Position numbers and translations under genes: made by a program. From contig SRMA01025500.1 in the NCBI GenBank assembly GCA_007224835.1, positions 21,870-85,869 of the forward strand: a stretch of 64,000 bases of DNA. Reading direction: 5' to 3'. Numbering within the stretch: position 1 is the first letter of the stretch; each line of letters begins with the position of its first letter. The DNA comes from Danionella cerebrum (Eukaryota). The notes below the pieces were generated by a model. That model searched no databases. It was not told the origin of the DNA and saw nothing but the letters and a program-made list of their open reading frames with translations. Below are positions 137-55,500 of the stretch, one piece after another.

Positions 137-2355
137 TGGGGTTTCAGAAGGAATCACCCAATTAAACAGCAGTGAAAGAAATGATAAAGGAAGAACATGA
201 GGGAAGGAAAGACACCACAACAGACAAACAAGAGGAAAGACCTAACAAGTATATCTGCCTAGAAAACTGCAACTTTAATTTTGAATTGGTTTTAGTACAC
301 TATTTTTTCAAGTTTTAATTTGGAAAGATATTGAAATTCTTTTGAGTCTTCAGAAAAGAAATACTTCTGGACTATCCAAAAAGTCTCATTGTGAGATCCG
401 AATAATAACTGTGAAAGATTAAAAAAAGAGAACACTCAGTGGGAACTGGAGAATTATGCCATTTCTAAAAGAGTTGAGTCTTCTTTAAGACAATAATTGC
501 ATAAATCTGCATAGATCCAAGTCCCTCCAACAACGGACCATTTCAGTTCGCCGTTTACAGACTAAATTAATCCCCACAGTGAACTTTTAGTCATTTATGA
601 AACTCAGCTGCACAAATAATAATGATGGTTTCCCCCTCCACTGAACACATCTTTCAGATCAGGAAAAACTACAGAGCATAAATAGAAGAAAATAAACTAT
701 TTGCCATTTTCAGATTCAATTCAATTGAAGGGATGGATTTGGTCTGTACTTTTTGCGTTAATACGTTGAGGTCTTTGACCTAAGCGGGAATTATTAAATA
801 TGTTTAAGGTTTAACAGAGCTTTTCTGAATACAGAGCCACAGAATTAAGAAGCATGTCCCGTCAGGAGATAAAAAAAAGAGTTTAATGAGGTTTCAGATG
901 AGAGGTGCAAGATAAGAGTCACATAAAACACCCAAGTCCATGCCCATGCATCTGGTAATCCTGCCAAAGAACATAAACTGAGGGAAATGCTGGCCAGCAG
1001 AGCAACTGGCTCTTAAGAGCAGCTCTGAGACTATAATTAGACTAAGATCAAAGCAATAAAGTAGGCTACATTAGCTACATGTTATGCCTTTCTTGACACA
1101 GCTGAGTCAAATCATTATTCCACAAATGTAGGGATGCTTCTGTTTTTTCATTTCAGCAACACTTTCAAGCATAAGCCAATATTTTATTCACAACAGAAAT
1201 ATTTAAACAGAGAATGGTTCACTTGTGTGCACTAAACAAGCTCTTTTCACATTTGATACTAAGAATGGATCTTAAATAGTTGCGGTAGAGCTAACAAATG
1301 AAACAAAAAGCTAATTATTTAGAAAGATTAACTGGGTAAAGAAGTAGCAATTAACTGAGTTAGGCTCTTTAACGTGATTGATGTCAGGGAAGCGCTGAAG
1401 TTGCACAGAAATAATATGTAGATAAATTACAACTTGTACATTTGTAAACTGTAAGTTTTTTACGACAAGATTTTGTTATGAAATAGTCAACAGATGCCCA
1501 AAATCATGAGCAAATTGGTACTCGCACAGTGTGAACTACCCAAATGTTACCAACTGGTCATGAGGTTTTAAATATTTGGTCAGAGATTCTGGCTCATGAT
1601 GAGTAAAATGTGTTCTGACTTAAATAACATCTTGGATTACCAGCCGCCAATAAAAGAGCAACGTCCGGGGCAGTGGGAAGTTAGGAAGGAGTTACAGAGG
1701 CATAGACAGCAATGTCAACTAGATGACTAAAGCATGCAAACTTTGATGTTTGAAATCTTTTTTTAATGATACCAATGTTACAATGTAAATTAAACCATCC
1801 CCTGTGTCTCTACGATTTTTCCAAGCTGAGATAGAGATATGCCAAATCGCTCAGTTCCCACTTTCCTCACGTTCGCAAATGTGACAAATAAAAGTGCGAT
1901 TTTCTAAGCAGATCAGCAAAAATGAAAAATTTTCTCCCTCAGAGATAGCTGCATCATCCATCAAAAATATTCACTGACGCTTACAATAAGAGCTCAGGAA
2001 GGATTCCATGCATATCGCAATATACAAAAAGAGTCTGACTGGGAAAACTGCAAACAACTAAATGGTTTTAGCGCCCATACATTTCCAGATTTGTATGTAC
2101 AGAAATTCAGTTTTAGTTTAAGCCAGGTGCTGAACTGGCTTGCCTGCAGTGCAATTTTTAAACCTAAACCAGGCAAAAAGTGGTCAAAAGTACAAATAAA
2201 CTCAAATAACAAATAATTAACTATAATTAGTTATGAGCCACAAAGCTCAATGTTGAAAGTTCTGTATGTTTAAATAAAGTAGGTTAGCAAAAAAAATATC
2301 TTTAAAAGCATTTTAAAAGCAATATTCAAAGAATATTGTCGAGCAGGCTTCTTAA

Positions 2356-3089
2356 CACTTAGAGGTCCAGGGCCTTTTTGAGCGTTTTTGCTATATTACA
2401 TTTTCTCTAATAAATTACCTTAATAAATAAACAATATTAAAGCTTGATATAATTTTTAGTACAACCCCATCTTCTTTTTTATTTAGAAATATTTTTCTTT
2501 ACATTACCCAATAATTCCACAATAAACCAGAAAATGTACAAGAAAATAAAATTCTGACAGTTAAATTGTAATTTTTTTCAGTGCAAAACGTAAAAAAATG
2601 AACAATTTTATGTTTAACAAAAATCAAGCGTTTTCTTGTAAAATAAAAATTCACAAATCCCTCAAACAAGCAAAGACAATGATAAAAAAATGTGAAAATT
2701 GTATAAAAAAATGGGCGAACCTCTTCTATACCTTTTACACTGTTTCAAGCACGTTTTGTTCCATTGTGCTTTCTTTTGTGCCAGAACCATATCGCAGGTC
2801 TTGTACTTCCATTGGTTATCCCTTCTTTTCACTACTACATGGCACTAATGGCACCAATTTGGGGTCCGTAAAATGAAACTGAAAGACAATCGTGCATTTT
2901 CTGACATTTTAATCATCTTCCAAATTGAGTCATAACTCTTGTAATGTTAATTTAAATGCAAAAATATCAAAACTGATAACCAAAAGAAATTAAAAATGTA
3001 TTTAAAAATACAACAATAGCTGGGTTGCATTATTCCTACTTAATTCAAAACAGCCGCTGTGATTGGTATATGCACCGGTGCCTGCAGGG
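2356..3089. mobile_element. piggyBac-like non-autonomous element (MITE), copy 1 of 5, apparently complete and flanked by TTAA
   Basis: TTAA at 2352-2355 and 3090-3093. Terminal CACTTAGAGGTCCAGGGCC at one end and GCCTGCAGGG at the other. The same family (shared motifs 'tcttttcaccactagatggcac', 'ctgaaagacaatcg', 'cctttttgaaacctac') recurs at 17.8, 28.7, 34.8 and 51.8 kb. The best-preserved termini read CCCTTAGAAAGTCTGGGGCC, which resembles the canonical piggyBac end CCCTAGAAAGATA. Confidence 0.55.
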
Positions 3090-3171
3090 TTAACAGTTTT
3101 ATACTTGTGGCAAGAAACAAATTTGTTTCTTAATTGCTCATTTATCATGTTGTCTAAAGTCTTTGGTGAAG

Positions 3172-3893
3172 CAGGGCTCTAGACTAACTTTTTGCACTGG
3201 TTGCACTGGTGCGCCTAAATTTTTTTCTTAGGTGCACCAGCACAAAAGTTAGGTGCACCCAAATTTTCAACTGCATCACATTTAACACCGCATTTTCACA
3301 AGTTCACTTTTTTAGTTCTCTATTTATTATTTTTTTTAAATCACTGTCCATAGACAATATTGACTTGTAAATGATTAACTCGCGTAACATCATTGCTGTA
3401 CGTCGGGTTTACGTTCAAGCCATTTTTCTTCATAAGAATTATTTCGGACTTGAATTTAGTGAAGGGGAGTTCTTCTTTTGCAATATTGTAGGCAACGTTA
3501 AACTTAATTCTCATCTCGGCCTCGTCTGATCTGTTTGCAGCTGCCTGCCGCTGTAAAGGTAGTTCACATCGAACGTGGTTCGCGCGGTAAGCGCGGAGGG
3601 TTTCCATGTTAAGTCAATGCAAAGACGCGTTTGCGCGCGTCTGAGGCTTCAGCGGCGCGGTAAACGCGAATTGAGAGGCGCGCTTGCCGCGATAGGCGCG
3701 TATTGAGCCGCATGAATGGGTGATACGCGTGTTGTGAGCCGCGCGCAGGAGGCGGAGCGGCCGTAGACGGAATTTCGTTTTTTTTCCCACTCGAACGACG
3801 GGTCGCACCGGTGCAACCTTTGATTTTTTTTAGTCGCACCATTGAGAAATTTGGTCGCATATGCGACCAAATTGGTCGCACTCTAGAGCCCTG
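3172..3893. mobile_element. Non-autonomous DNA transposon with 12-bp TIR (cagggctctaga / tctagagccctg) and 5-bp TSD TGAAG
   Basis: Perfect 12-bp TIR at 3172-3183 and 3882-3893. Identical 5-bp direct repeats tgaag at 3167-3171 and 3894-3898. Subterminal repeats ggtgcacc / ggtcgcac are present at both ends. Internal 3600-3780 is a CpG-rich block unlike the surrounding AT-rich DNA. Confidence 0.7.
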
Positions 3894-4865
3894 TGAAGAA
3901 CTGGTTCCCATTACATTAGTCAAATAAATAAACAGAATTCAGGCCATGTACAGAAATACTACATTTAAAACAGGCTGAACTCATATTTGGTTCACATGAG
4001 TAAAACATCATTATCACGGAGGGTTATACGAGATGAGATCAAGTTATGGTATATGATTTTAACTACTAAAAGTATTGTAGTCTCCAAAAATGTAGCTTTA
4101 AAACTCATTAAGATGGATCTCCCAGGTCAGGACAGGCACTGTAGTCAGCGCCTCAGCTGCAGAGCGAAAAAAAACAAAACGGGTCTTTTAGTACAGACTA
4201 AAGTGGGGAGGGGGGCTACACTGCTTCCTGTGTGTGAGGGTGAGCAGCTGGTGGCACAGCTGTACTAGTCTGTATGTGCATTCGTGTCTGTGAGAAATTA
4301 ACTATATATACACAAGACTGGGACCCTGTTTTCCTGCTTGATGGGAAACACCCCACTGGAAGGACATGGGGAGGCAGCATACATAGATTTAATTAGATAC
4401 AGGAGCATTAGGGTAGTAAACAAGACATGACTAAAGCAGAGCTCAGCTCTGAGAGAGAAGCAGTGGATATCAGACGTTTTTCAGCAAACGAAAGCCTTGA
4501 CACAGTAAATTAATAATTGAAATTCTGTTTTGTTAAACAAGTTGTGACCGTGTTCAGTAGTGAACCAAATGTGAACGTTGGCTGATTGCAACATATAAGA
4601 CACTAAACATAAAAAGTTTAATAAACTATTCAATTATTGATGAAATGAAGTCCTTGCTTTATTCTCGGAGTAGAACATTCAAGAAAAATTACAAAAAAAG
4701 GAGGCTTCATGTTAAAAATAGAGGCTGCCCCTACTGGGATCCAACCGGCATCAATAATGTAACCGTGTCATGACGTCTTTGTTCTTACAAGTTGAGCCAA
4801 ATATACTTATATTATATAATCTATTTATATAATCTTAACTAATATACTTACCTGTAATTATTCAC

Positions 4866-4988
4866 TGCGATGGACTGGTGACCTGTCAAGGGTATACCCC
4901 CCCCCTCTCGCCTGAGCTGGAAATAGGCACCAGCAGACCCCTGTGACCCCGTAAGGTAATAATTGGGTTAGAAAATGAATGAATGTAG
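4866..4988 (+). mobile_element. tRNA-derived SINE, 3' fragment (conserved core + gaaaatgaatgaatg tail)
   Basis: Contains 'ggactggtgacctgtcaagggtatacccc...ctctcgcc...ccctgtgaccccgtaagg...gaaaatgaatgaatg', matching the full copies at 26.6, 29.5 and 33.0 kb. Confidence 0.6.
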
Positions 4989-7900
4989 TTTTTCAAGGCA
5001 TATCAACACTTCTAGTTGGTTGTTAGGGTCTGGATTTAGCCTCGAATGTTTTCAGGCCCAAGAAACTGTTCACCACAGTTGCATCGAATGATGAAGTCTG
5101 TTCCATCATGATAAACTTCATTAATGGATGTTACACATTTATGAGTTATTAGTTTTTGTATGAATCTTGTGTATTTATTTCCGGAAGGTTGGTTTTCGAA
5201 ACGCCATCAGGGTTTGGAAAATCAGGCCTTCACTGTCCAGCCTTGACGTAACCATTGGACTCATGTGACATCGTCAATAAACTTTTATAAATCACTACAA
5301 AAGCCACTAAAATGTCTTGAATCAAGGTGGGAGAAGTACATCTATGACCATCTCTGAAAAGACAGACAGAAACACCAGGAAATACACTCAATTTGGGAAC
5401 ATCCGTTTTCTAGAGTGAGTTCATCCCAAGTGCTGTTAGAAACCCAAAGTTGTGCTGTAACCAAAATACTCGTACTAGAAAAGAATAAATATTGTACCAC
5501 GGCAAGACACAGTGCCAGAGCATCTGTGCTCTACAAGGTGATTTAAGGACAGCGTGTGTTTGTGAGAGCCAGGGTCAAATGCAGATGTTGCGACTAGACA
5601 GGAACCCCAGGCAAGTCTGAATGTGTGGAAAAAAGGCCAACATGACATTTAGGTAGGTACACAAGCTTCTTAAGAACCAAACAAGGTAAAATGCATTAGA
5701 TAAGATGACCACAGACATGTTTCCTTTGGATTGTGGATGTAATTTGTGCAACTGCTGGTCTGAACACTGGTTCGAGGACTAAATGCACCCCTGCACAAAA
5801 TAAAGTGCAAGTGAGCCATTAGGACAAACAGAGTGTCTTTAACCACAAATTGCTTCATCAATAAATCACCAGAGCAGCATTTTCTAGGTTAATGCACACA
5901 GCCCTCTTTGCTTCAGCTTCAATCACCCGCATTCAATAGACCACCACCTTAAAGTAGTAGCTAGAAAGGCTATTTAAATGAAAAATTAGCACCAAGCTGT
6001 GCTCATGCAATTGAGAAAATGGTTTCAATGCGAGACGATAATTTCTGAGTCTGTGGAGCCATGTTTACAATAAATGCAAAGCCACTTCATATTTATCTTA
6101 GCACTGCACCACCTTCTTTGTGCTGTTTTGTCAGGCCCTCAGTCTCCCAGGTCGTTTTGGCTCATAAATCAATCAAATAAAAAAATTTCAAAAACATCTC
6201 CGCTTTTAGATAAGTGCTCTTAAGAGGAGACAAAATCTTTAAATCAAGTTGACAGATCTATCTACCCTTTTTTTCTGCTTATCCTGAAGGAGAGACATGC
6301 AGCAGGCTGCTCTCTAAGGAATTTCCCTTCCACCTACTCTACTTACTCCTTTGTTCGACTCTCTCTATGTGGTTTGTTAGCTCTTTTTACCATTCTGAGG
6401 ACTATTTTCTATTATACCTTCTTAAACCTTGCTTCTACCATCTTCATAATAATGGATTATCACAAAATATTGGTGATAACATATTCACAATGGTTTTACT
6501 AACAACTTATGTCAGTACAAAAAAAAAATGTTTGCACATTCTTTTTGCATTTCCATTTCTGAGATCAAAACTCTGAGATGCGAAACTGAAGCTGAAATGA
6601 AACCAACAACAAATGGAGAGTATTGAAAATCAATGTCTGTCAATGATTTTTAAGGTAATTACTTGATTATTTTTGTTTTAAGGCTGATTTTTTTTTCTTT
6701 GTAATCAATTTATTTTTGTTCTTTTTGGCTGTAATTACGTATTTATGGCACAAAATGAATTCCATAATTTCCTAAAAATACTTCATATTGCAATCCGAAT
6801 GAAGCTTGCATTTAACAAGTGTTTACTCTATATGTTTCTCTGATGCTGGATAAACAATGACCCCTTTGCCTTGTTTAGGGACACCCTCATTTGTTTCTAA
6901 AGCACCTTCAATCTTCAAAGAAAGAAAGCAAAACTCACACAGCTTTCAGAAGACACCAGGTTCACAGAGACTTCTCATTTTGAAGTGAATCAGCCTTTAA
7001 GCACATAATGCCCATACGCTCCTTCAAAGAGCTGTTCTGTTCCTGTTCAAAGACTTGCTTCAGTCGGTAAGAGGATTGAGGCATACTGAGGTCTGCATAT
7101 GACACCTCATAAAAATGTCATCACTTGAAGTGCTAAACATATGTTCAGGAGCGATGATGCAACCAATCCGACGTCAACACCCCATTATTTCATACAAAAC
7201 ATCACTCTCTCTGATTTTATTTCTCTCAGAATCGGGTTCCCTTGTTTCTCGCGTCTTGTCTTCCCTGCTGGCTTGTTCACTCAGCCTGAGACCACATGTG
7301 AAAAACCCTGCTGCTCCTGTGTGTCTTCGAGATCTTTTATCCCTCCCAGATGAGGTTTAACAGGCTAAGAGAGACTTCAAAGTGAAACAACTCTTCACGT
7401 AGGCTAAAAGTGATGTCTTAAATCTTCAATTCTTCCTATATTCTGACCACAACCACCTGTCCTTACTCGCCAGTAAGCCACATCTAACATCTTGTTTCAC
7501 CTGTTTACATTTACTTTGTAAATCTTTTCACATCTCACAAACCTCAGCAGCCTTGTCCCATGGTGAGAGGGAACCAAGACAATTGTTCTCGTGGGATAGT
7601 GGTTCGTGTACACAACAAAGTAAGAGCAAGAAAGAGCTAATCCAGGGGAAAGCGAGCCACTTCTTCACAGAAAGGAAATCTCCCACTTCATTAGATCGCG
7701 CCACCTTGTTCTTAAAAAGCTTGGGATAATCCGCATTTTGGTGCACCTTGGCATGTCTGGGACTCATTGTGACTCACACAAGTTAACAAGAAAGCAGCGT
7801 TTCAAATGTTCGATTTTCAAAGATGTCACTTTAAATGCTATTATGATCCAAGCTTCAAAACCTAATGCTTTCTTTTGTGTGCCATATTCCAACATGAAAC

Positions 7901-8993
7901 CAGAGCCAATGTGCAAACGCGCTCAAACAAAGCAGCACGGCGTGCTTGAATAAACACCTGTGCTGCCAGATACGGCTGGCCGAGAGGGATAACAAGCACA
8001 GGGCAGAAAATCCACTGGACGTGCTCCACTTAAATCAAACAGAGGTGTGGACAGACACACACAGATACCCTCCAGGAGACGACAGGGAATTACCATAAAG
8101 TCTCTCTCACTCTACAATATAGCCATAATATTACCTGAGCACTTTATCTGACAAGCCAGCAGGCACAGATACTGTAAATGTCATACACTCAGTTAGCTGC
8201 TAAAAGGCTTGTGAATGCATGCAAGGCTCTGACCTCCACGTGACAAGCATTGCTAATAGAATCATGTCAGAGATTTTTTACAAAGTGTTTGTGAAAATGT
8301 GTCGGGGTAGAAGACTAATTCAATTTTCGGTGCAGTTTAGCTGTGGCATTCAAAGGAGATGAATGTAAATGCTTTATCTCGAATAGCATCTGTTAGCCAG
8401 CTAAGGTACTTTCTGAGATGTTTAAATGAAGCATCCTTCCGGAAATACACTGACAAGCTCCAAAAATATTTTTGCACATTAGCCATGTTTCTATCCAAAG
8501 TTGCAAATTAAATGTATGTGCAAAAATGGAATATTGCTTAAAATATTTCCGTATAAAGCACCATTTCCATCCAACGAGTCCAAGAAAACAAAATAGTCTC
8601 CTCCTGATAAACTGCCACCAATTATCAAAAGAAAAATGGAAGTTGCATTAGAAGAAGGTCTTTTTCGTATAATAACTTAATTGCGTCCTACAACCCGAAG
8701 ACAAAACGCAATACATGTCATCTGCTCTTTGGGAACGCAGCCAGTCAAGACAGTTCTGGGAGGTGATTATCCCAAACCACTGTGATGACAGACTTTGGCA
8801 ACATTTCAGATGTTATGCAATGAAATCAGAGTGTTGGTTAGTCCATTAATGCCGCCCCAGTTCTGACAGAAAAATGCATTTATTCTGTAAATCCATTTCC
8901 ATGAAATGCAAAACATTAGCTCAAAATGGCTGCAGATAATGTATATGAGGCTGTAGTTTTGTACCCCAATATTTGTTTACAAAACCTGCAAAT

Positions 8994-17600: not shown

Positions 17601-17799
17601 TTTCTGACAGCATTAACAAGAATAAGAAGCTACAGAAGCAAAACTCCATCCACTTTCAATGAGTCACTGACCTTTAAATCTCACCAGGTCTCAAGCTATG
17701 TCCAATAAACCGAGCAGAGTTCAGTTCACAATGGATCTAAAGGTTTTTTTCTATACCTTTCACAGGAATTAAATTTAACTTATTTCAAACGAATCTTAA

Positions 17800-18310
17800 C
17801 CTTTAGAAGTCTGGGGCCTTTTTGAGCATTTTTTTCTACTACACTTTGATCTAATAAATTATCTTTAAAACCGTTTTTGTGACTTAATGCTTAATATCTT
17901 TTTTTGTGACAAATGTTTTCATTATATTCCACAAATTTTACAAAAAAATACTATTACAAGTATTAAATTGTAATTTTTTACTGCACACATCTCAAAAAAT
18001 GAGAACAGTTTCAATGTTTTATAATGAAAATCAAAACTGTATAACAAAATAAAAAATTATAAACCTCCAAAAAAACAAAGACACTTTGCCAAACCTGTGC
18101 AAACACAAGCCATATCATAGCTATTGTACTTATCAACCCTTCTTTTCACCACTAGATAGCAGTGATGGCGCCAATTTGGCTTCTATAATATTAAACTGAA
18201 AGACAATCGAGGATTTTCTAATATTCTAATTACCTTACCAATAATGTGTTAATACTCTTGGAATGTTTATTTGAATCCAAAAGTATAAAAACTAAACCTT
18301 TTTGAAACCT
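17800..18310. mobile_element. piggyBac-like MITE, copy 2 (TTAA at 17796-17799, terminus CCTTTAGAAGTCTGGGGCC)
   Basis: Same family as 2356-3089. Shares 'tcttttcaccactagatagcag..gatggcgccaatttgg', 'ctgaaagacaatcgagg' and 'cctttttgaaacctacacattataagacc'. The 3' part is missing. Confidence 0.5.
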
Positions 18311-18586
18311 ACACATTATAAGACCTGCGATATGGCTTATGTTTTTCAAATTTCTTGCACAAAAGAAAGTACAATGGAACAAAAAGTGCTAGTTGAAACA
18401 GTGTACAAGCTTTTGTAGAGGGTTTATACAATATTTGCAATGTTTTGACCTTGTCTTTTCTTTTTTTGGGGACTTATGAAATTAAATTTTATTGCAATGA
18501 TTAGGATTTTGTTATAAAGCCTAAAACTGTTAGTGAGCCACTCATATTCTGCAGTAAGTAAACAACAAAATGTACTACTCCGAATT

Positions 18587-27180: not shown

Positions 27181-27899
27181 AGCGTAAAGAAACTATCATG
27201 GCCTTTTTCGTACTTATGGTTCTAAACCAGTTTTTATCAGATGCTGGTCATAAATATCATGCCAAAAGTGGTTTAGTACATAAATTTGATGTATTCTAAA
27301 TATACAGGTTCATAAAGGTTCTGAATATCACCTTTGAACATTGGTTCTAAATAGCACTTTCAAGATAAGTGTTAAATGGCACCAAAAAGGTTCCACTTGA
27401 AACCAAAAACAAACACATTTGGTTCTACACAGAACTTTTGTTTTTAGGAGTACTGTATAGTAAATCTTAACATTTTAAGAGAAATCATGCGTGAAATCCA
27501 AGCAGTTAGGCGAGGAAGGTACAGTTGAAAATCAGTTTATCATTCATTACAAGAAGTGCACAAATGACCCGAGATAACCTGCATTGTTCTCCAGTTAAAC
27601 ACCAGTGCTCAAGCCCAAACAAACAGGATCTTTTGAGTAACAATTTGGCTTCCAGCATGACCATCTAACTTATCAAACCATGAAATTATATATTAATAAA
27701 AAGGTTCCAAACTATTTATATTCATAAAAAACACACATTATACATATTACTACACGTTAATGTTAAAACAAGCACTTACCCATAACAACAAAGGCTGTAA
27801 CGAACCATTTGATATCCATGGTTGTCCTGCTTTCGGCAACTGATATTAAGTCCAAATATGGATTAAAAAGCGACAATAAATCCCTGTCTTTAAACAGAC

Positions 27900-28480
27900 T
27901 TTGGGGAGCGAGTTGAGCTAGAGTTGTGACCGCGTCGCGTACACCTGTTCGGACCGCGTGCGAGAGCGACCGACTCCACGAAATTCAATTTCTCCCGGGT
28001 CTAATGAATTCCAAGCGGCTACGACGAATATTCTGCCCGTATTTGTTAAAAGACGTTTTTAGTATTTAATAAAACCTTTAGGTCCTCCGACAGATAAAGT
28101 CCTCCGTAGACGAGAGAGCCCGATGCTGTGAGTTCTCCGCTCCGTCGCGTCGCTCTCCTGCAGCCCACGCGTGGTGGAGGAGTGAGTCCGGTTTGACCAG
28201 CTCCCCCTCAGATAAGCGGCTCGCTGCGGTCCTTGAAACTTCCGTTATCTTTGCAGGACGGGTTCGAGGAGACGTACGCGTTCGCCGTGCGTTGCAGAGC
28301 AGTGCGGTGATGCTTCCGTGCGCGCGTTCACCTTCAGCGCTATTGTCACACGCGCGACAAAAGGCAGAAGGCGGCCCTGCCCATCCCGTACTTTCAATCA
28401 CGAGCAGCCTCCGAGGAGGAGACCACAAGGGAAATCCTGCCTAAGACCACTGCGGTGGCAGGGAGTTCAACCCCTCAAAG
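27900..28480. promoter_or_regulatory. CpG island, candidate promoter / 5' end of a host gene
   Basis: GC- and CpG-dense block (gaccgcgtcgcgtacacctgttcggaccgcgtgcgagagcgaccg...gcccacgcgtggtgg...gacgtacgcgttcgccgtgcg...) that contrasts sharply with the flanking AT-rich DNA. It is not part of any repeat copy seen elsewhere in the window. Confidence 0.5.
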
Positions 28481-34548: not shown

Positions 34549-34790
34549 GTGTTTAGGAGCAGCCAAAATCTGCACCAAGGTGAGGTTGAGAAAGACATTA
34601 TTGTCATGGAAAGATTGAGAACAGCAACAAGACAGAAGGTAGTTATACTGCATCGACAAGGTCTCAAGATTTCAAAGACTATTGGTTCAAGATGTGCAGT
34701 TGAAGCTCTTCAAGGAAAACAGCAAGATTTAGGATCGTTGATACAGTGTTTGCCCAAGGAAACTTGTGAAGTAGATGCAAAGAACATTTA
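34549..34790 (+). mobile_element. Tc1-like transposon, 5' fragment (transposase N-terminal HTH)
   Basis: Encodes MERLRTATRQKVVILHRQGLKISKTIGSRCAVEALQGKQQDL (compare Tc1 SEDLRLRIVAAHKAGKGYKTISK...). It is abruptly replaced at 34791 by the terminus of a piggyBac-like MITE. Confidence 0.5.
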
Positions 34791-35237
34791 CCCTTAGAAA
34801 GTCTGGGGCCTTTTAGAGCGTTTTTTTTATTTTTTTACTCTAATAAATTGCCCTTAAACCAGTTTTGTTGTGGCAGACTTGAGATAAAAAAACTTGAGAA
34901 TTAACAGTTTTTATGTTTTATAGCAAAACACTAAAACATTGGGACAAAAAAGAATCATAAATCCCCCCGAAAAGCAAAGACAAGATCAAAAAAAGTGAAA
35001 ATTGTTTAAAAAAAAAACAGGCGAACATTCAGTTCCAGCATTTTAACTCAAGCCATCTCACAGGTCTAGGACTTACAAGGGTTATCCCTTCTTTTCACCA
35101 CTAGATGGCACTCATGGCATTGATTTGGAGTCTATAAAATGAAACCGAAAGACATTTTCATTTTTGTCATAATTCTTGTAATGTTTCTTTAAAACCAAAA
35201 ATATCAAAGTGAATGACCTTATTGAAACCTACATATT
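34791..35237. mobile_element. piggyBac-like MITE, copy 4 (terminus CCCTTAGAAAGTCTGGGGCC)
   Basis: Best match to the canonical piggyBac end. Contains 'tcttttcaccactagatggcactcatggcattgatttggagtctataaaatgaaaccgaaagaca'. Followed by (GA)n. Confidence 0.5.
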
Positions 35238-47513: not shown

Positions 47514-50500
47514 CTTCTTCTTCTACTTTCGGCTGTTCCCAGTTTAGGGGTCGCCACAGCGAATCATCCTTTTCCACCTAACTCTGTCTTCAGTATCCTC
47601 TACTCTTGCACCAACCATGTCCTCTTTCAGCACATCCATATATCTCGTCTTTGGCCTTCCTCTTGACCTCTTTCCTGGTAGCTCCATCTCCAACATCCTT
47701 CTACCAATATAACCACTATCCCTCCTCTGCACATGTCCAAACCATCTCAACCTGGCCTCTCTGACTTTGTCTCCAAAACAACCAACCTGAGCTGTCCCTC
47801 TGATGTGCTCGTTCCTAATCTTGTCCATCCTAGTCACTCCTAAACTGAACCTCAACATCCTCATCTCTGCTACTTCCAGCTCTGCCTCTTGTCTCTTCCT
47901 CACTGCCACAGTCTCCAACCCATACATCATAGCTGGTCTCACTACTGTTCTGTACACCTTTCCTTTGATTCTTGCTGACACTCTTCTGTCACACAACACC
48001 CCTGACACTTTTCTCCACCCACTCCAACCTGCCTGCACTCGTCTCTTCACCTCTTTTCCACACTCCCCGTCACACTGGACTGTTGACCCCAAATACCTAA
48101 ACTCCTGCACCTTCTTGACCTCATCCCCCTGTAACCTCACTGTTCTATTTCCCTCCCTCTCGTTCAAACACATGTATTCTGTCTTGCTGCGACTGACTTT
48201 CATTCCTCTTCTTTCTAGAGCTGACCTCCAACTTTCCAGGTTTTCCTCCACCTGCTCTCTGCTCTCACTACAAATTACAATGTCATCTGCAAACATCATT
48301 GTCCACGGCGATTCCTGCCTGACCTCATCTGTCAACCTGTCCATCACCATAGCAAATAAGAAGGGACTCAAAGCTGATCCTTGATGTAGCCCCACCTCCA
48401 CCTTGAACTCCTTTGTCTGACCTACAGCACATCTCACTGCTGTCTTACTTCTCTCATACATATCCTGAACTACTCTGACGTACTTCTCTGCCACTCCTGA
48501 CCTCCTCATACAGGACCATAGCTCTTCTCTTGGCACCCTGTCATACGCTTTTTCTAAATCCACAAAGACGCAGTGAAGCTCTTTCTGACCATCTCTGTAC
48601 TTCTCCATTAACAATCTCAGAGCAAAAATTGCATCAGTAGTGCTCTTCCTGGGCATGAAGCCATACTGCTGTTCACAAATATCCACTTCCCTTCTTAGCC
48701 TAGCTTCCACTACTCTTTCCCAAAGTTTCATTGTGTGGCTCATCAACTTTATGCCTCTGTAGTTGTTACAACTCTGCACATCACCCTTGTTCTTAAAGAT
48801 TGGTACTAGGACACTTCTCCTCCATTCCTCAGGCATCTTCTCACTCTCTAAAATCCTGTTGAATAACCTAGAAAGGAACTCCACTGCTGTCTCTCCTAGA
48901 CACTTCCACACCTCCACTGGTATGTCATCTGGACCAACAGCCTTTCCACTCTTCATTCTCCCCAGAGCCTTCCTCACCTCATCCTTTCTAATCTTTTCAA
49001 CTTCCTGCTCTACAGTATTCACCTCTTCCTCCCTTCTTTCCCTTTCATTCTCCTCATTCATCAACTCCTCAAAATACTCCTTCCATCTTCTCAGCACACT
49101 CTCCTCACTTGTTAGCACCTTTCCATCTCTATCTTTAATCACCCTTATCTGTTGCACATCCTTCCCATCTCTGTCTCTCTGTCTGGCTAATCTATACAAT
49201 TCCTTCTCGCCTTCCCTCGTGTCTAACCTGGCATACAACTCATCATATGCTTTCTGTTTGGCCTTTGCCACCTCCCTCTTCACTCTGCGCTGCGATTCCT
49301 TGTAGTCCTGTCTACTTTCTTCAGTCCTTTCAATGTCCCACTTCTTTTTAGCTAGCCTCTTCCTCTGGATGATGTCCTGTACTTCCTCATTCCACCACCA
49401 TGTTTCTTTATCTTCTTTCCTCCTTCCAGCTGACACACCTAGCACCTTTCTTCCTGTCTCCCTGATCAATTCTGCTGTAGTTTCCCAGTCATCTGGAAGC
49501 TCTTCCTGACCACCCAAAGCCTGTCTCAGCTTCTGTCTGAATTCTTCACAATCTTCTTCCTTTTTCAACTTCCACCACTTGGTCTTCTTTTCAATCTTTC
49601 GTCTTCTCTTCTTCCTGACCACCAGAAACATCCTACACATCACCATCCGATGCTGTCTGGCTACACTCTCCCCTACCACTACTTTACAGTCTCTGATCTC
49701 TCTCAGATTGGCTCGTCTACAAAGGATGTAGTCTACCTGCGTACTCCTCCCTCCACTCTTGTAGGTAACTCTATGTTCCTCCCTCTTCTGGAAATAAGTA
49801 TTAACTACAGCCATTTCCATCCTCTTGGCAAAGTCCACCACCATCTGTCCTTCTAGGTTCCTTTCCTTAACACCGTACCTGCCCATCACCTCCTCATCAC
49901 CTCTGTTGCCCTCGCCAACATGCCCGTTGAAATCTGCTCCCACTACTACTCTCTCCCCTCTGGGAACACTCTCAATCACCTCATCCAGCTCACTCCAAAA
50001 TCTCTCCTTCTCTTCCAACTTACAGCCTACTTGTGGAGCATAACCACTCACTACATTCAACATCACCCCTTCAGTTTCTAACTTCAAACTGATCACCCTG
50101 TCTGACACTCTTTTCACCTCTAAAACATTCCTCACAAACTCCTCCTTCAGGATCACTCCTACCCCATTTCTCTTCCTATCCACACCATAGTAAAACAGTT
50201 TGTATCCCCCTCCAATACTACGCCCTTTGCTACCCTTCCACCTGGTCTCCTGCACACACAGAATATCTACCTTTCTTCTCTCCATCATGTCCGCCAGCTC
50301 CCTACCCTTCCCTGTCATTGTACCAACGTTAAGAGTCCCTATTCTCAGATCTACACTCCTGCCTTTCCTGTTCTCTTTCTGTCGACGAATCCTTCTCCCT
50401 CCTCTCCTTCTTCGACAAACAGTAGTCCAATTTCCAGCGGCACCCTGTAAGTCAACAGCACCGGAGGCGGTCGTTGTTAACCCGGGCCTCGACCGATCCG

Positions 50501-50641
50501 GTATGAAAATCGATTTGGTGACTCGCATATTTGGTTTTGGCATATTTTACGCCGGATGCCCTTCCTGACGCAACCCTCTCTATTTATCCGGGCTTGGGAC
50601 CGGCACAGAAGTCACTGGCTTGCAACCCCTGAGGCTAGATT
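47514..50641 (-). mobile_element. Full-length non-LTR retrotransposon (single-ORF APE+RT, RTE-clade-like), about 3.13 kb, with 17-bp TSD
   Basis: Single 999-aa ORF with a 98-nt 5' UTR and a 30-nt 3' UTR ending in a (GAA)n tail ('..gtagaagaagaag'). Direct repeats cccatccatctccgagt (47497-47513) and cccatccacctccgagt (50642-50658). Removing the element rejoins one continuous repeat sequence. Confidence 0.85.
47544..50543 (-). CDS. LINE polyprotein: N-terminal AP endonuclease (EEP fold) + reverse transcriptase, 999 aa, no internal stops
   Basis: Endonuclease motifs: LNVGTMTGKGRELADMMERRKVDILCVQETRW, VVGADFNGHVG, TQVDYILCRR. RT motifs: PIFKNKGD, YGFMPRKSTTDAIF, HCVFVDLEKAYDRV, GLHQGSALSPFLFAMVMD, MMFADDIVI (FADD box). 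ATG at 50543-50541, stop TAA at 47546-47544. Confidence 0.85.
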   Translation of the reverse strand: MPKPNMRVTKSIFIPDRSRPGLTTTASGAVDLQGAAGNWTTVCRRRRGGRRIRRQKENRKGRSVDLRIGTLNVGTMTGKGRELADMMERRKVDILCVQETRWKGSKGRSIGGGYKLFYYGVDRKRNGVGVILKEEFVRNVLEVKRVSDRVISLKLETEGVMLNVVSGYAPQVGCKLEEKERFWSELDEVIESVPRGERVVVGADFNGHVGEGNRGDEEVMGRYGVKERNLEGQMVVDFAKRMEMAVVNTYFQKREEHRVTYKSGGRSTQVDYILCRRANLREIRDCKVVVGESVARQHRMVMCRMFLVVRKKRRRKIEKKTKWWKLKKEEDCEEFRQKLRQALGGQEELPDDWETTAELIRETGRKVLGVSAGRRKEDKETWWWNEEVQDIIQRKRLAKKKWDIERTEESRQDYKESQRRVKREVAKAKQKAYDELYARLDTREGEKELYRLARQRDRDGKDVQQIRVIKDRDGKVLTSEESVLRRWKEYFEELMNEENERERREEEVNTVEQEVEKIRKDEVRKALGRMKSGKAVGPDDIPVEVWKCLGETAVEFLSRLFNRILESEKMPEEWRRSVLVPIFKNKGDVQSCNNYRGIKLMSHTMKLWERVVEARLRREVDICEQQYGFMPRKSTTDAIFALRLLMEKYRDGQKELHCVFVDLEKAYDRVPREELWSCMRRSGVAEKYVRVVQDMYERSKTAVRCAVGQTKEFKVEVGLHQGSALSPFLFAMVMDRLTDEVRQESPWTMMFADDIVICSESREQVEENLESWRSALERRGMKVSRSKTEYMCLNEREGNRTVRLQGDEVKKVQEFRYLGSTVQCDGECGKEVKRRVQAGWSGWRKVSGVLCDRRVSARIKGKVYRTVVRPAMMYGLETVAVRKRQEAELEVAEMRMLRFSLGVTRMDKIRNEHIRGTAQVGCFGDKVREARLRWFGHVQRRDSGYIGRRMLEMELPGKRSRGRPKTRYMDVLKEDMVGARVEDTEDRVRWKRMIRCGDP

Positions 50642-51035: not shown

Positions 51036-51834
51036 TTTCTTGTCGCTTCTGAAAGTTCTTTAAGTTGAAATATTTACTCATAATTTAAAAGAAAAACATT
51101 ATTGATAGAACTCCATCACTTAATAGAAAAACAGAGGACTTAGTGCTGCCCTCTAGTGAGTGGATGATATTAAAAGCCCTAAAACAAATCAAACCAGACT
51201 GTAGCCTTCTTCACTTTTCTTTCTCAAAGCCTTCTTCACTTTTCTTTTCTTTTTAGTACATTTTTTCATCCACTGATTACATGAATGGTTTTAATAGTTG
51301 GTTAAAAATTATTTAGAAAATATTGTGATACCGTAATACAGATCAACGAACCCTCAATCGCCTGATATTGCCTATAATTAATAATCCTTGATTATCTGTG
51401 TAAAAAATCATTTGCCAAGTTATACTGGTAATTTTTCATGGTTCATGAGCATTAACAAGAGCAAGTTTGTTCATTTGCAATAAAAATAAACAAAATATAA
51501 TTAGAAGATGAGATGTTTTCAGTGTGAGTAACCTGGAAATAAATGTTTTTATTTATTTTGTTAAGTGTGATTAACAACAAGGCAACCTGAAAATAAGCAT
51601 GACAAATATCTTGAGAATCTGATGAGATCATTGGCTAGCGTGTAACTAGGCAACACTGGTTGAGAAGTAAGTAGGGTGAGCCTAAGCATGCTGGACACTA
51701 AGAAGTACCTTTCCCTCCATGTAGACTTTAAGGGCATAGTAGAAGTATTTAAATTAAGAGTGTCAATTGGTGTCACAATTAATTTTTTTTAAATATACAA
51801 AGATCATATTAATACTTGATACTTGATTTTTTTT

Positions 51835-52556
51835 TTTTTTGTACAACCTCAGCTTTTTTTTACAATGATATCTTTATTACATTACACAATAATTCCATAG
51901 CAAACCTGAAATTGTGAAAAAATTCAATTCTGACCAGAAACCTTATACACCGTGTGGACACATTTCCCATGTCTTGTACTTCCAATGGGCATCACTTCCT
52001 TTCACCACTAGATGGCACTGATAGCATGCATTTGGAGTCTGTAAAACGAAACTGAAAGACAGTCACTCATTTTCTCAATTTAAATACCAAATTATCTACC
52101 ATTCATTCATCTTTTAACCCCTTGTTTCGTTTCGGGGTCACGAGGGCCTGCCTTTCTCCAGCGCACTTCAGACAAGAGGTGGGGGTACTCCCTGGACAGG
52201 TCGCCAGTCCATCAAAGGGCAAAAAACACATTCAATTAACCTAAGGCATGTTTTTGGGATTGTTACCCGGAGGAAACCCACGCAAGCACAAGGAGAATAT
52301 GCAAACTCCTTCCAGGAAGCCTCAAACCCTGAACCTTCTATTTGGAAGCCCACAAAACCTTCTGCATCACCATGCCGCTCAATTATGTAGCGTACCTCTT
52401 GTAATGTTCTTTAAACCCAACAATTTCAGTGCTAATAACCTTTTTGAAACTTACATGTTAATTTTGGAATCAAAATTATAATAGTGGTTGGTCGCACCAT
52501 TCCTACTTAATACAAAACAGCTGATGTGATTGGCAAACGCACCGCTGTGTGCAGAG
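51835..52556. mobile_element. piggyBac-like MITE, copy 5 (5'-truncated) carrying a nested SINE
   Basis: 'gtacaacctcagcttttttttacaatg...ttcctttcaccactagatggcactgatagcatgcatttggagtctgtaaaacgaaactgaaagacagtc...cctttttgaaacttacatgtta...tggttggtcgcaccattcctacttaatacaaaacagctgatgtgattgg..gcaccgctgtgtgcagag'. Confidence 0.45.
52110..52380 (-). mobile_element. tRNA-derived SINE inserted inside the piggyBac-like MITE copy 5
   Basis: 'cattcattcatcttttaacccc..gtttcggggtcacgagggcctgcc...gacaagaggtgggggtactccctggacaggtcgccagtcc...ggagaatatgcaaactcc', the antisense of the SINE consensus seen elsewhere in the window. Confidence 0.6.
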
Positions 52557-55500
52557 AATTTAATGCTTAAGGGTGTTTTTGTTTCTAAATCGATCAAGGA
52601 CTGCTTATGCCCTCCACTGCTGCATTGCGAGTGAGGTCTTGAAAAACTCTACTGAGAATCCTTACAGAATAACCCGACCAAACTCTAATCTCAGTAGTAG
52701 CAGTATTGTTTTTTTTAATCAGATTCGTCTTCCTCTGAGATTGAGTTCTTAAAAAAACCCTGCCAAGGACCCAAACTAATAAACGGTGGCTTATGTTGTG
52801 ATGTTTAAACAACAAAATCCCTGATACAAATAATACGCTTGTTTACATGTTTAGCAATGTGAGTTTTATTCCGAAAAAGACTTCACGGTCTTCTGGGGTT
52901 AATTGATGCTTGTATTGGAGCAGGGTTAGAACAAAGTCCCCACAGAACAACTTTGAATCTTTTTTGATTAAACAACGACATGCATCCACCACATAGAACT
53001 TTTTAAATGACGCAAAGCTTCTTTATGGAACATTCCATGTATGGATTTGTTTATGCAGACGGTTATTTGGCAAAAGTATTTTACCTTTGTGTCTGGGTCT
53101 TCTAAACTTATCATCAGTCTGATCCACAGAGCCTAAGGTGATGATTCACTCCACAGGAAAGGTGAGCTCTTGTACAGTAGATTTGGGAAGTGGGAATCTT
53201 TTGATGGCTGCATGGGAGCAAATCGCAATGTAGACCAAGACCTAGACTGCCTTCCCAGTGCACCCAAAGGTGTGGACCAAGGACCAAGCTGTGTACAAGT
53301 TGTAATAAGAAGACCTCTAACAGTGTCAGGCAAAGCTCTGCAAGTTCAACTGAAATAGTTACCATGGAGATTTGTACAGGGGCACAGGCGCACACCAAAA
53401 TCAATCAGATTGATTGAAAAAAGAAGTATTTTATGCCACATCTGCTACACAGATCTTTACAGCTGCAAAGCTTGCTTGTTGAATGTTATCTTTAACAGCT
53501 CCAATAAATAAGATAAATAACCTGTTAGCCACGGGACACGCAAATCATTCCTGTGCTTTTAAACATTTTTTACAGATTATTTACAGATGCTGCACAGTTT
53601 TTCTTTTAGTGCAACCATATCATAAAAAAGCAGGGTAACCAATACCAGAAATTAGTCACCAGTATGTCACGCAGAAACAAAAAATTTTGACAGAAGAAAT
53701 TGATTGTTGCACTAAATTGGGAAATCTGAAAAACAGGAGCAACTTTATACAATTAGAACTTTGAAAGAAATCCTAGCCTAATCCTAAGGAACCCTCTAAC
53801 TGTTCCACATCATGTCATTATTTATCATACAGCATTTTTAATTATTATAGCAGAATTTTAAAATAAATATATATTTGTTTAATGATTCAATTTTGTTTAA
53901 TTTATTGAAGCTCTGTGCTCCTTTTTATTACAGGACTCCAGCATAACCCCTATATTGTGATTAACAACGGCAGGATCTGATTGGAGGAGTCACAGTGATG
54001 TCATCACTGCACTTTGAAGATACTATTATATGAGCTATATAGCATTTATTAGGGTGTTATGGAAGAGTTGTGATTAAGTTGATGTTGATGCGTTAAGCTG
54101 TTGGTGGTATATTTGTATTGCTGTGAAACTGTTAAAGCTGTTACGATGCAGATTTAAGATGGCATGCTATTTTGACTCATTGATTGCAAAATTATTTAAT
54201 GTTAATGAACAAATTGTTTATTAATCAACCGATATGTTTACAAAAATTATTTCATTTCAGCTTTAATGGGTAATTGAAAGAAGATAGTGGTAAACTTATA
54301 TCATTGTTAACTGTTGTCACAGTTTCTAAGCAAGAGGAAGGAACCCAGATTAGTTCAGCACAGTTTATTTCCAAAATAAGTAAGTTTTACTGAAGTAAAT
54401 GTTCCATAAAGACCAGCACTCTGTAGTAAATAATAGCAAACCAGGAAGTTAGAGGAAAGCGGCGCCTTGAGTCCGCTTGGGGAGTCTGTACAGTTGAACA
54501 GCAGGTGAGTATAGATATGTATCGGTGAAAGGAGAGATCCAGTAGAGAAGCAAGCACATAAGTCACAGGGGAACCAAGAGGGGGAGATCTGATCATGGAG
54601 AGTCAGGTGGTGTGAACCGTAGGTCACAACCAACTCTTGTGGAATGAGTCTTGTTCTGGGCTGCTACAGGACTGACGGTGGTTGGGTGTTGGATTCATTG
54701 GAGTGATTGGGAGCAGGTGTGATGCTTCTGTCAATGAGGGAAGATTGCTTTCTGGCTTTGTGTCACACAGAATCCCTGACAATTGTCATTATGTTAGTTC
54801 TAACAGATGATCTAAAATGTCAATGTGGAGCTGTTGGTTAGAATGGGGACTGATCAAGTTTGCTTGTGGTGAACTTTGTATTTGGTAGACATGGATCCAA
54901 GAAACTGGATTTCCACACACCGCAGCTAAGACATCCGAGATCTCATGAGAATTCCACGAAACTCTATAAATTAAAAAGAGACTAAACAGGAAGCCTTTAA
55001 GCTGACTAAGCCCTCCCACTGCTCTGTAACTAAGACCGTTATACAAAACCAAACTGAAAGAAACAACAAACTGTGATGAGGTGCATTAAATTCCCTCTTC
55101 ACCATATTCTTTATATTAATGCTCTTTCCCAATTTATGAATAGCATGAGCATCTCTTTTGACAGAGGTGCCAACTTTTGACACATAGAGAGAGCATGTTT
55201 GATTGGAAAACTAAACTGTGAGCAACTGTAGCAGCCCGACTGAAACACAGTCATCTGTGGGAGACTGTAACCAGGAATAATGGAACATGTCGTTGTTGTC
55301 ACGCTTAATGTTTCTCAGCATTTGTTATGACTTAATAAGCCTAACAGCATTTGACTGGCTAAACAAGCTGCATTCAAAATGTCCTCTGAAACAAGACACA
55401 TATGGTAGAGGTTTGTCTGGATTAAAGGCATATACTCACAGATGCTGTGACCACCTGCTAACCCCATCCTTTTGTGTACTTTTCATTAAAGATTGTAAAA

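Follow-up and report, generated by a model that had tools for sequence, protein, structure and literature searches.

Target site duplications (TSDs) of 5 bp are typical of Transib, a group with a RAG1-like DDE transposase and RSS-like CACNGTG termini. PIF/Harbinger elements make a 3-bp TWA TSD and encode a DDE_Tnp_4 transposase and a Myb-like open reading frame (ORF); Ginger elements have an integrase-like DDE transposase and TGT...ACA-type termini; and piggyBac elements duplicate a TTAA target and have CCC...GGG termini. hAT elements, finally, are typically recognized by YARNG termini and 8-bp TSDs (PMC3014272). One hAT group, hAT5, occurs in some invertebrates and fish and is "unusual in having 5 bp TSDs" (PMC9004415); in the citing passage of PMC12730594, Kapitonov and Jurka (Repbase Reports 2007) are the source given for hAT5 as the hAT group with 5-bp TSDs.

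The window, by which we mean the whole stretch of 64,000 nucleotides that was analyzed, is eukaryotic and vertebrate-like, clearly resembling a teleost genome (GC content, 0.39; CpG observed/expected ratio [o/e], 0.45) and also holds several DNA-transposon remnants. On the basis of its sequence, we assign positions 3172 to 3893, an element of 722 bp, to the hAT superfamily as a non-autonomous, internally deleted transposon of the hAT5 type, i.e., with a 5-bp TSD, and put the probability of this reading at roughly 0.8; the reference hAT5 elements were compared by description (TSD length and host range). The interval of 3167 to 3898 given for the transposon in the first-pass annotation corresponds to the element plus both TSD copies. 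The features are as follows, in window coordinates.

3167 to 3171, no strand: left TSD copy, TGAAG, the same as 3894 to 3898 and abutting the terminal inverted repeat (TIR).
3172 to 3183, plus strand: left TIR, CAGGGCTCTAGA, the exact reverse complement of 3882 to 3893; 3' end relative to the transposase gene.
3184 to 3269, plus strand: left subterminal region with repeated TTGCACTGG and GGTGC(A/G)CC motifs; 92 to 93% identity to L006/L007 and 77 to 82% to L008/L041 and L001.
3192 to 3210: tandem 9-mer within the left subterminal region, found with TRF.
3386 to 3559, minus strand: remnant of the transposase coding sequence, residues 17 to 74 of an 88-codon ORF (3341 to 3607); in full-length relatives, this segment separates the zinc finger from the catalytic core.
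About 3557 to 3775, no strand: CpG-rich core with degenerate 31- to 32-bp repeats and GC palindromes, non-homologous where relatives have a CCAAT-box promoter, 5' untranslated region (5'UTR), and about 140 N-terminal codons.
3776 to 3881, minus strand: right subterminal region (5' end of the element) with five GTCGCA/TGCGAC motifs; 85% identity to L002 and 81% to L042.
3882 to 3893, minus strand: right TIR, TCTAGAGCCCTG on the plus strand; its counterpart in L002, L008, and L042 abuts unrelated flanks.
3894 to 3898, no strand: right TSD copy, TGAAG, abutting the right TIR.

The TIRs are exactly 12 bp long, since position 13 is a mismatch, and the flanking match spans 5 bp, the 8-bp flanks (TGGTGAAG and TGAAGAAC) being different. 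By arithmetic estimate, about 20 perfect 12-bp inverted pairs no more than 6 kb apart are expected by chance in 64 kb, and about 0.02 per window are expected for such a pair with a 5-bp direct flank; in a relaxed scan of the window, the pair bounding the element was the only one with perfect arms. In other genomes, the similarity of L002, L006/L007, L008, L001, L009, and L044 ends exactly at the CAGGG termini, and the counterpart of the left TIR, CAGGGCTC[T/C]AGACTAACTTT, was found between unrelated flanks and element sequence in L006/L007, L008, L001, L009, and L044. The predicted boundaries of the element were confirmed in this way, with similarity disappearing at these termini in at least five other assemblies. 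The first-pass annotation had correctly recognized a TIR transposon with a 5-bp TSD, with perfect 12-bp TIRs and TGAAG on both sides. Its concern that the TIR might belong to a longer tandem or satellite array was not borne out, as TRF detected only the two-copy, 9-bp subterminal repeat in the element and no further copy of the element was found within the 64-kb window. Its description of a clean, probably recent insertion, consistent with the exact TIRs and TSD and with the undecayed CpGs, also stands: because the TIRs and TSD are perfect and CpG o/e is 1.4 over the whole element, versus 0.45 for the genome, the insertion is probably recent. The empty, pre-insertion site would read ...TTTGGTGAAGAACTGG....

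A 5-bp TSD was seen in the only two independent two-ended copies retrieved: it is perfect in the window (TGAAG/TGAAG) and imperfect in Aldrovandia affinis (L008, 4786 to 6151), where both termini surround a longer version of the gene and the flanks, CTCCA and CTCAA, match at four of five positions, the 8-bp flanks being unrelated. L041 represents the same insertion as L008, and L007 duplicates L006. It might be supposed that the element is a canonical hAT transposon with an 8-bp TSD and that the 5-bp match arose by coincidence or is what was left of an 8-bp duplication after decay or rearrangement, all the more since most hAT elements make 8-bp TSDs (PMC3014272) and since L001 contains a miniature inverted-repeat transposable element (MITE) whose termini are similar and whose 8-bp TSD is perfect. 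However, the 8-bp flanks of the element do not match at all in register, the perfect 5-bp match (chance, about 1 in 1024) sits beside perfect TIRs in an undecayed copy, and the Aldrovandia copy fits 5 bp (4/5) but not 8 bp, and we consider an 8-bp origin highly improbable.

The MITE in L001 (3576 to 4185; 610 bp) has 17-bp TIRs (CAGGGTTCTAAATTAAC) and GTTGCATA as its TSD; its first 22 nucleotides match the left end of the element at 19 positions, but it has other subterminal repeats (TTGGCGGG/TTGGCTGG). As a canonical hAT element, it is odd in having near-identical tips beside a family with 5-bp TSDs; because of its 8-bp TSD, similar termini do not guarantee a 5-bp TSD. Elsewhere in L001 (about 5765 to 5800), an inverted 11-nucleotide copy of the terminus lies just outside the 3' terminus of the element, with 8 bp between them (CTGGAGCCCTG-AAGTTAGT-CAGGGCTCCAG). 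This spacer is complementary, in reverse, to the first 8 internal bases, and the arrangement could have come about by rearrangement or by aberrant transposition.

All close relatives were found in teleost assemblies or on contigs whose sequence is fish-like. One end was present in L002 and L042 (5' end) and in L001, L009 (Metynnis), and L044 (3' end). The copy in L006/L007 (GCA_977066275.1), 92 to 94% identical and with the 3' end only, is another deletion derivative of the same family. Contigs that were truncated or had one end only comprise L001, L002, L006/L007, L009, L040, L042, and L044, and an autonomous copy with both ends was not recovered among the contigs examined. Two of these loci have peculiarities of their own. 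In L009 (5694 to 6925; Metynnis hypsauchen), an internal tandem duplication of about 1067 bp covers the ORF remnant and accounts for a repeated peptide in the annotated protein P0001. In GCA_977066275.1, a 5.6-kb block (2566 to 8180) in which a Tc1/mariner-like transposase gene adjoins the truncated hAT remnant is present on both contigs, L006 and L007, with 97.75% identity, being either a segmental duplication or a composite repeat.

The assignment to the hAT superfamily comes from the gene remnant. The 88-codon ORF (3341 to 3607, minus strand) had 43 homologs, with E values down to 3e-32, most of them short, fish-derived ORFs; these were found only via large protein databases, and Pfam and PDB sequence searches with the 88-residue ORF alone gave no match. 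Some homologs run N-terminally into a C17orf113-type zinc finger (PF25431), and others continue at the C terminus with ...ACAQFIGVI..SFMIDGDTDVSTKE..., a stretch similar to the beginning of a DDE/RNase-H core. A profile search retrieved 1309 relatives, the full-length ones being 608 to 793 residues long and containing PF25431 and PF05699 (Dimer_Tnp_hAT, scoring above Pfam's cut-off), with or without PF14291 (DUF4371). Among these relatives, a 754-residue Lineus "ZNF862-like" protein (P0054) is 53% identical to the ORF over 58 residues, and NCBI uses the name "zinc finger protein 862-like" for relatives from Lineus longissimus, Antedon mediterranea, Doryrhamphus excisus, and Dendropsophus ebraccatus. 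Homology to the relatives is confined to residues 17 to 74 and ends at both edges of 3386 to 3559, which are deletion junctions. For membership of the hAT superfamily by way of the transposase dimerization domain, the evidence is indirect and comes from the relatives, the domain itself having been deleted from the 722-bp copy.

The gene runs from the right end of the element (3893) leftwards, on the minus strand. L002 and L042 share the 5' terminus and subterminal repeats of the element, after which come a CCAAT-box region, an ATG, the zinc finger, and the homologous segment. In L002, L042, and L008, the gene is longer, has the same orientation, and is flanked by the same termini; comparison of these copies indicates that the remnant is native to the element rather than captured, and the corresponding terminus with GTCGCA repeats ahead of the homologous ORF in metagenome contigs and in Lineus longissimus (see below) points the same way. 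The element has kept both 12-bp termini, both subterminal arrays, and 58 transposase codons, and because a native hAT gene remnant is truncated between retained termini, we regard it as an internally deleted, non-autonomous member of the hAT superfamily. Its ends agree with this: CAGGG fits YARNG and is part of a short TIR. The 8-bp TSD typical of hAT elements is absent, the flanks matching over 5 bp, and the 5-bp TSD of hAT5 is present as TGAAG/TGAAG here and as CTCCA/CTCAA in L008. Relatives of the element occur in fish and invertebrates, matching the host range reported for hAT5 (PMC9004415).

The first-pass annotation had held that the combination of CAGGG termini and a 5-bp TSD does not fit hAT and might be Transib-, Ginger-, or PIF-like. 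Neither statement survived: CAGGG fits YARNG, a hAT transposase gene remnant lies inside, hAT5 does make 5-bp TSDs, and the relatives carry hAT domains only. One could still envisage a Transib-, Ginger-, or PIF/Harbinger-like element that has captured a fragment of a hAT gene, given that the TSD has the length typical of Transib and that the 88-codon ORF is a fragment only. Set against this, the same termini flank longer, same-orientation stretches of hAT-type gene in several species and phyla; the termini fit the YARNG of hAT, not CACNGTG or TWA-flanked ends; and a domain search found no RAG1-like, integrase-like, or DDE_Tnp_4 homology in any relative. Such a capture strikes us as extremely improbable. 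Taken singly, Transib was rejected since its TSD length fits but the termini read CAGGGCTC and the gene remnant is of the hAT type; PIF/Harbinger, since the TSD is 5 bp (TGAAG) and the relatives have hAT domains only; and Ginger, since the element ends in CAG...CTG and its gene remnant, again, is of the hAT type.

Just inside each TIR lies an array of short motifs. On the left, five GGTGCRC-type motifs fall within 3208 to 3253, versus 0.13 per kb elsewhere in the window; on the right, five GTCGCA/TGCGAC motifs, among them the palindrome AATTTGGTCGCAT/ATGCGACCAAATT, fall within 3802 to 3880, versus 0.13 per kb outside. We infer that both arrays are putative transposase-binding sites. The right-hand arrangement recurs far beyond the teleosts. 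Four metagenome contigs from JGI (L012, L013, L015, and L024) have the CAGGGCTC terminus and TGCGAC/GTCGCA repeats 1 to 2.8 kb upstream of the homologous ORF, and the Lineus locus (L010) has a CAGCGCTC terminus and the same GTCGCA repeats about 400 bp upstream of the annotated gene start. Similarity of this kind, from a nemertean and invertebrate-like metagenome contigs to teleosts, implies that the putative transposase-binding ends have been conserved for a very long time. The palindrome GGTCGCA(N2-3)TGCGAC was itself observed together with the CAGGGCTC/CAGCGCTC terminus in L010 (4591 to 4660), L024 (124 to 200), L012 (921), L013 (206), and L015 (1396). In all, the metagenome scan yielded 29 distant loci, 4 of them with 5' termini and none with a recognizable 3' terminus; nor was a 3' end recognized for the intact 793-residue relative (L043) or for Lineus L010. 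The combination of CAGGGCTC and GTCGCA repeats provides a handy signature for locating autonomous hAT5 elements.

When viral and prokaryotic genome collections were scanned with the terminus or the protein profile, the single match was a degenerate fragment (L045). This contig of 55 kb (CAXXBX010000137.1), labelled as part of a Dehalococcoidia metagenome-assembled genome, contains at 5800 to 6200 a eukaryote-type hAT zinc-finger/transposase fragment with 42% identity to the ORF, close to which lies a reverse-transcriptase-like ORF. The contig is probably a eukaryotic host contamination of the bin.

The element lies next to a piggyBac-like MITE (2340 to 3091), further, degenerate copies of which were observed near 17790 to 18500, 34780 to 35210, and 51830 to 52560. 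The right ends of this family read ...GCACCGGTGCCTGCAGGG|TTAA (also given as ...CTGCAGGG|TTAA), and the left ends resemble TTAA|CC(C/T)TTAGA(A/G)GTC; the copies are 70 to 80% alike and partly rearranged, one with an insertion of about 300 bp. Motifs shared by the element and this MITE had been noted before and taken as a hint at a related or chimeric family. The shared words do occur, with GCACCGGTGC at 3072 and 3805 and GTCGCACCATT at 3833 and 52491, but the proposed relationship does not follow from them, as they are at chance level and each is present in only one of the four MITE copies. Where the copy at 3040 to 3091 has GGTTGCATTATT, the copy at 52.49 kb has GGTCGCACCATT, and where the former has GCACCGGTGC, the latter has GCACCGCTGT. 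Exact words common to the subterminal 215 bp of the element and the remainder of the window number 64 for 10-mers and 20 for 11-mers, and BLAST of the element against 2340 to 3091 and the other copies revealed no similarity beyond words of this length. Membership of piggyBac was rejected for the element, which has no TTAA at its ends and shares 10- and 11-mers at chance frequency that are not conserved among the MITE copies.

The most unusual part of the element is its core. Within 3560 to 3780 (221 bp), there are 34 CpG dinucleotides, at a GC content of 0.59 and a CpG o/e of 1.86, which makes the core the most CpG-dense 200 bp in the window. It contains the repeat families D1, D2, and D4, with repeated GCGCG-containing units, and the palindrome AGACGCG-TTTGCG-CGCGTCT. 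Folded as single-stranded DNA, it is more stable than its shuffles (z = -3.4), of which 1 in 200 did as well. An unusual CpG-dense, self-complementary block had been pointed out in the first-pass annotation, and its CpG ratio, palindrome, and folding score bear that out.

Homology to the relatives passes the right subterminal repeats and a poly-A run, breaks off at about 3775, and restarts at about 3559. By position, the core stands in for about 625 bp of promoter, 5'UTR, and the first approximately 140 codons. In local alignments with the 5' regions of L001, L002, L008, L010, L042, and L044, the core reached shuffle level only. Its translations in any frame had no counterpart among 5.8 billion predicted proteins (called ORFs), no Rfam family matched it, and it was found in none of the other copies of the family that were retrieved; the ORFs of four further copies (P0185 to P0188) read through the same terminus into the CCAAT-type region, not into the core. 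Most likely, the core is filler or captured DNA from the formation of an internal deletion (abortive gap repair) in a young copy, or else a lineage-specific 5' region, and we infer that it is not a conserved functional module.

This bears on the earlier suggestion of a mobile CpG island or promoter, which is weakened by the finding that the block is not homologous to the 5' region of any relative and has no counterpart in any frame among called ORFs. As functional cargo, the core would be a CpG-island-type promoter belonging to the family or else a regulatory module that the MITE family carries from place to place. In favor of this, it sits exactly at the promoter/5'UTR position of the relatives, upstream of the minus-strand coding remnant; it has the composition of a CpG island and is the densest CpG block of the window, with repeated GCGCG-containing units and above-chance self-complementarity, and L001 likewise has a GCGC-rich stretch upstream of its ORF. 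However, similarity to the 5' regions of the six relatives does not exceed that of shuffles, the sampled relatives (L002, L042, and P0185 to P0188) have a CCAAT-box region instead, the search of predicted proteins came up empty, and a high CpG content is also expected of a young, not yet deaminated insertion. Functional cargo is, in our view, unlikely, and we find it more doubtful still, indeed quite improbable, that an active or very recently active hAT5 lineage is spreading the core, as newly acquired cargo, in the form of a mobile unmethylated CpG island or promoter that a MITE seeds at new loci. If the core turned out to be common in the family, this would be a minor case of CpG-island-like sequence being spread by a transposon.

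Elsewhere in the window, about 27860 to 28300 ranks second in CpG density (CpG o/e, 1.2 to 1.7; GC content, about 0.6) and may be a genuine CpG island or promoter. An uninterrupted ORF of 999 residues that resembles a LINE endonuclease and reverse transcriptase (47544 to 50543, minus strand), in a region of strong GC skew, may belong to an intact retrotransposon copy. Scanning both the window and the element for Rfam families and tRNAs gave nothing above threshold (SCARNA7, at 17.5 bits versus a gathering score of 65, is a chance hit), and a bacterial promoter and terminator scan, irrelevant to a eukaryote, returned chance-level counts.

Drawing on established hAT biology for mobilization in trans and for the role of the binding sites, we propose that the element, itself unable to move alone, would have been mobilized by the transposase of an autonomous relative. 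This protein would be about 720 to 790 residues long (relatives, 715 to 793) and would combine a C17orf113-type zinc finger, an RNase-H-like core, and a hAT dimerization domain. It would bind the subterminal repeats and then cut at the CAGGG termini; joining of the element to a target cut with a 5-bp stagger, followed by gap repair, would produce the TGAAG duplication.

In summary, the combination of a 5-bp TSD and CAGGG termini is to be annotated as hAT5 rather than Transib, Ginger, or PIF. The element is an ordinary mobile-element copy of the hAT5 type and no new kind of element, and its perfect TIRs and TSD and intact CpGs suggest recent activity of the hAT5 family in the fish lineage of the window. 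With Transib it shares the 5-bp TSD, but neither the RAG1-like transposase nor the RSS-like CACNGTG termini of that group. The hAT-derived ZNF862/C17orf113-type proteins (PF25431) resemble it insofar as full-length relatives of its ORF are named "ZNF862-like" and combine zf-C17orf113 with Dimer_Tnp_hAT; those, however, are annotated host genes, whereas here a remnant of 58 homologous codons lies in a TIR-bounded, TSD-flanked element. Canonical hAT elements and their MITEs (Ac/Ds, hobo, Tol2, Charlie, and Blackjack) are alike in their cut-and-paste mode, TIRs of 10 to 25 bp, YARNG termini, repeated subterminal binding motifs, frequent internally deleted, non-autonomous derivatives, and C-terminal hAT dimerization domain, but they make 8-bp TSDs (PMC3014272), compared with 5 bp for the element. 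The closest match is the hAT5 group, with which it has in common a hAT-type transposase gene, short TIRs that start with YARNG, a 5-bp TSD, and occurrence in fish and invertebrates, and from which the 722-bp copy differs as a deletion derivative with a non-homologous, CpG-rich insert.
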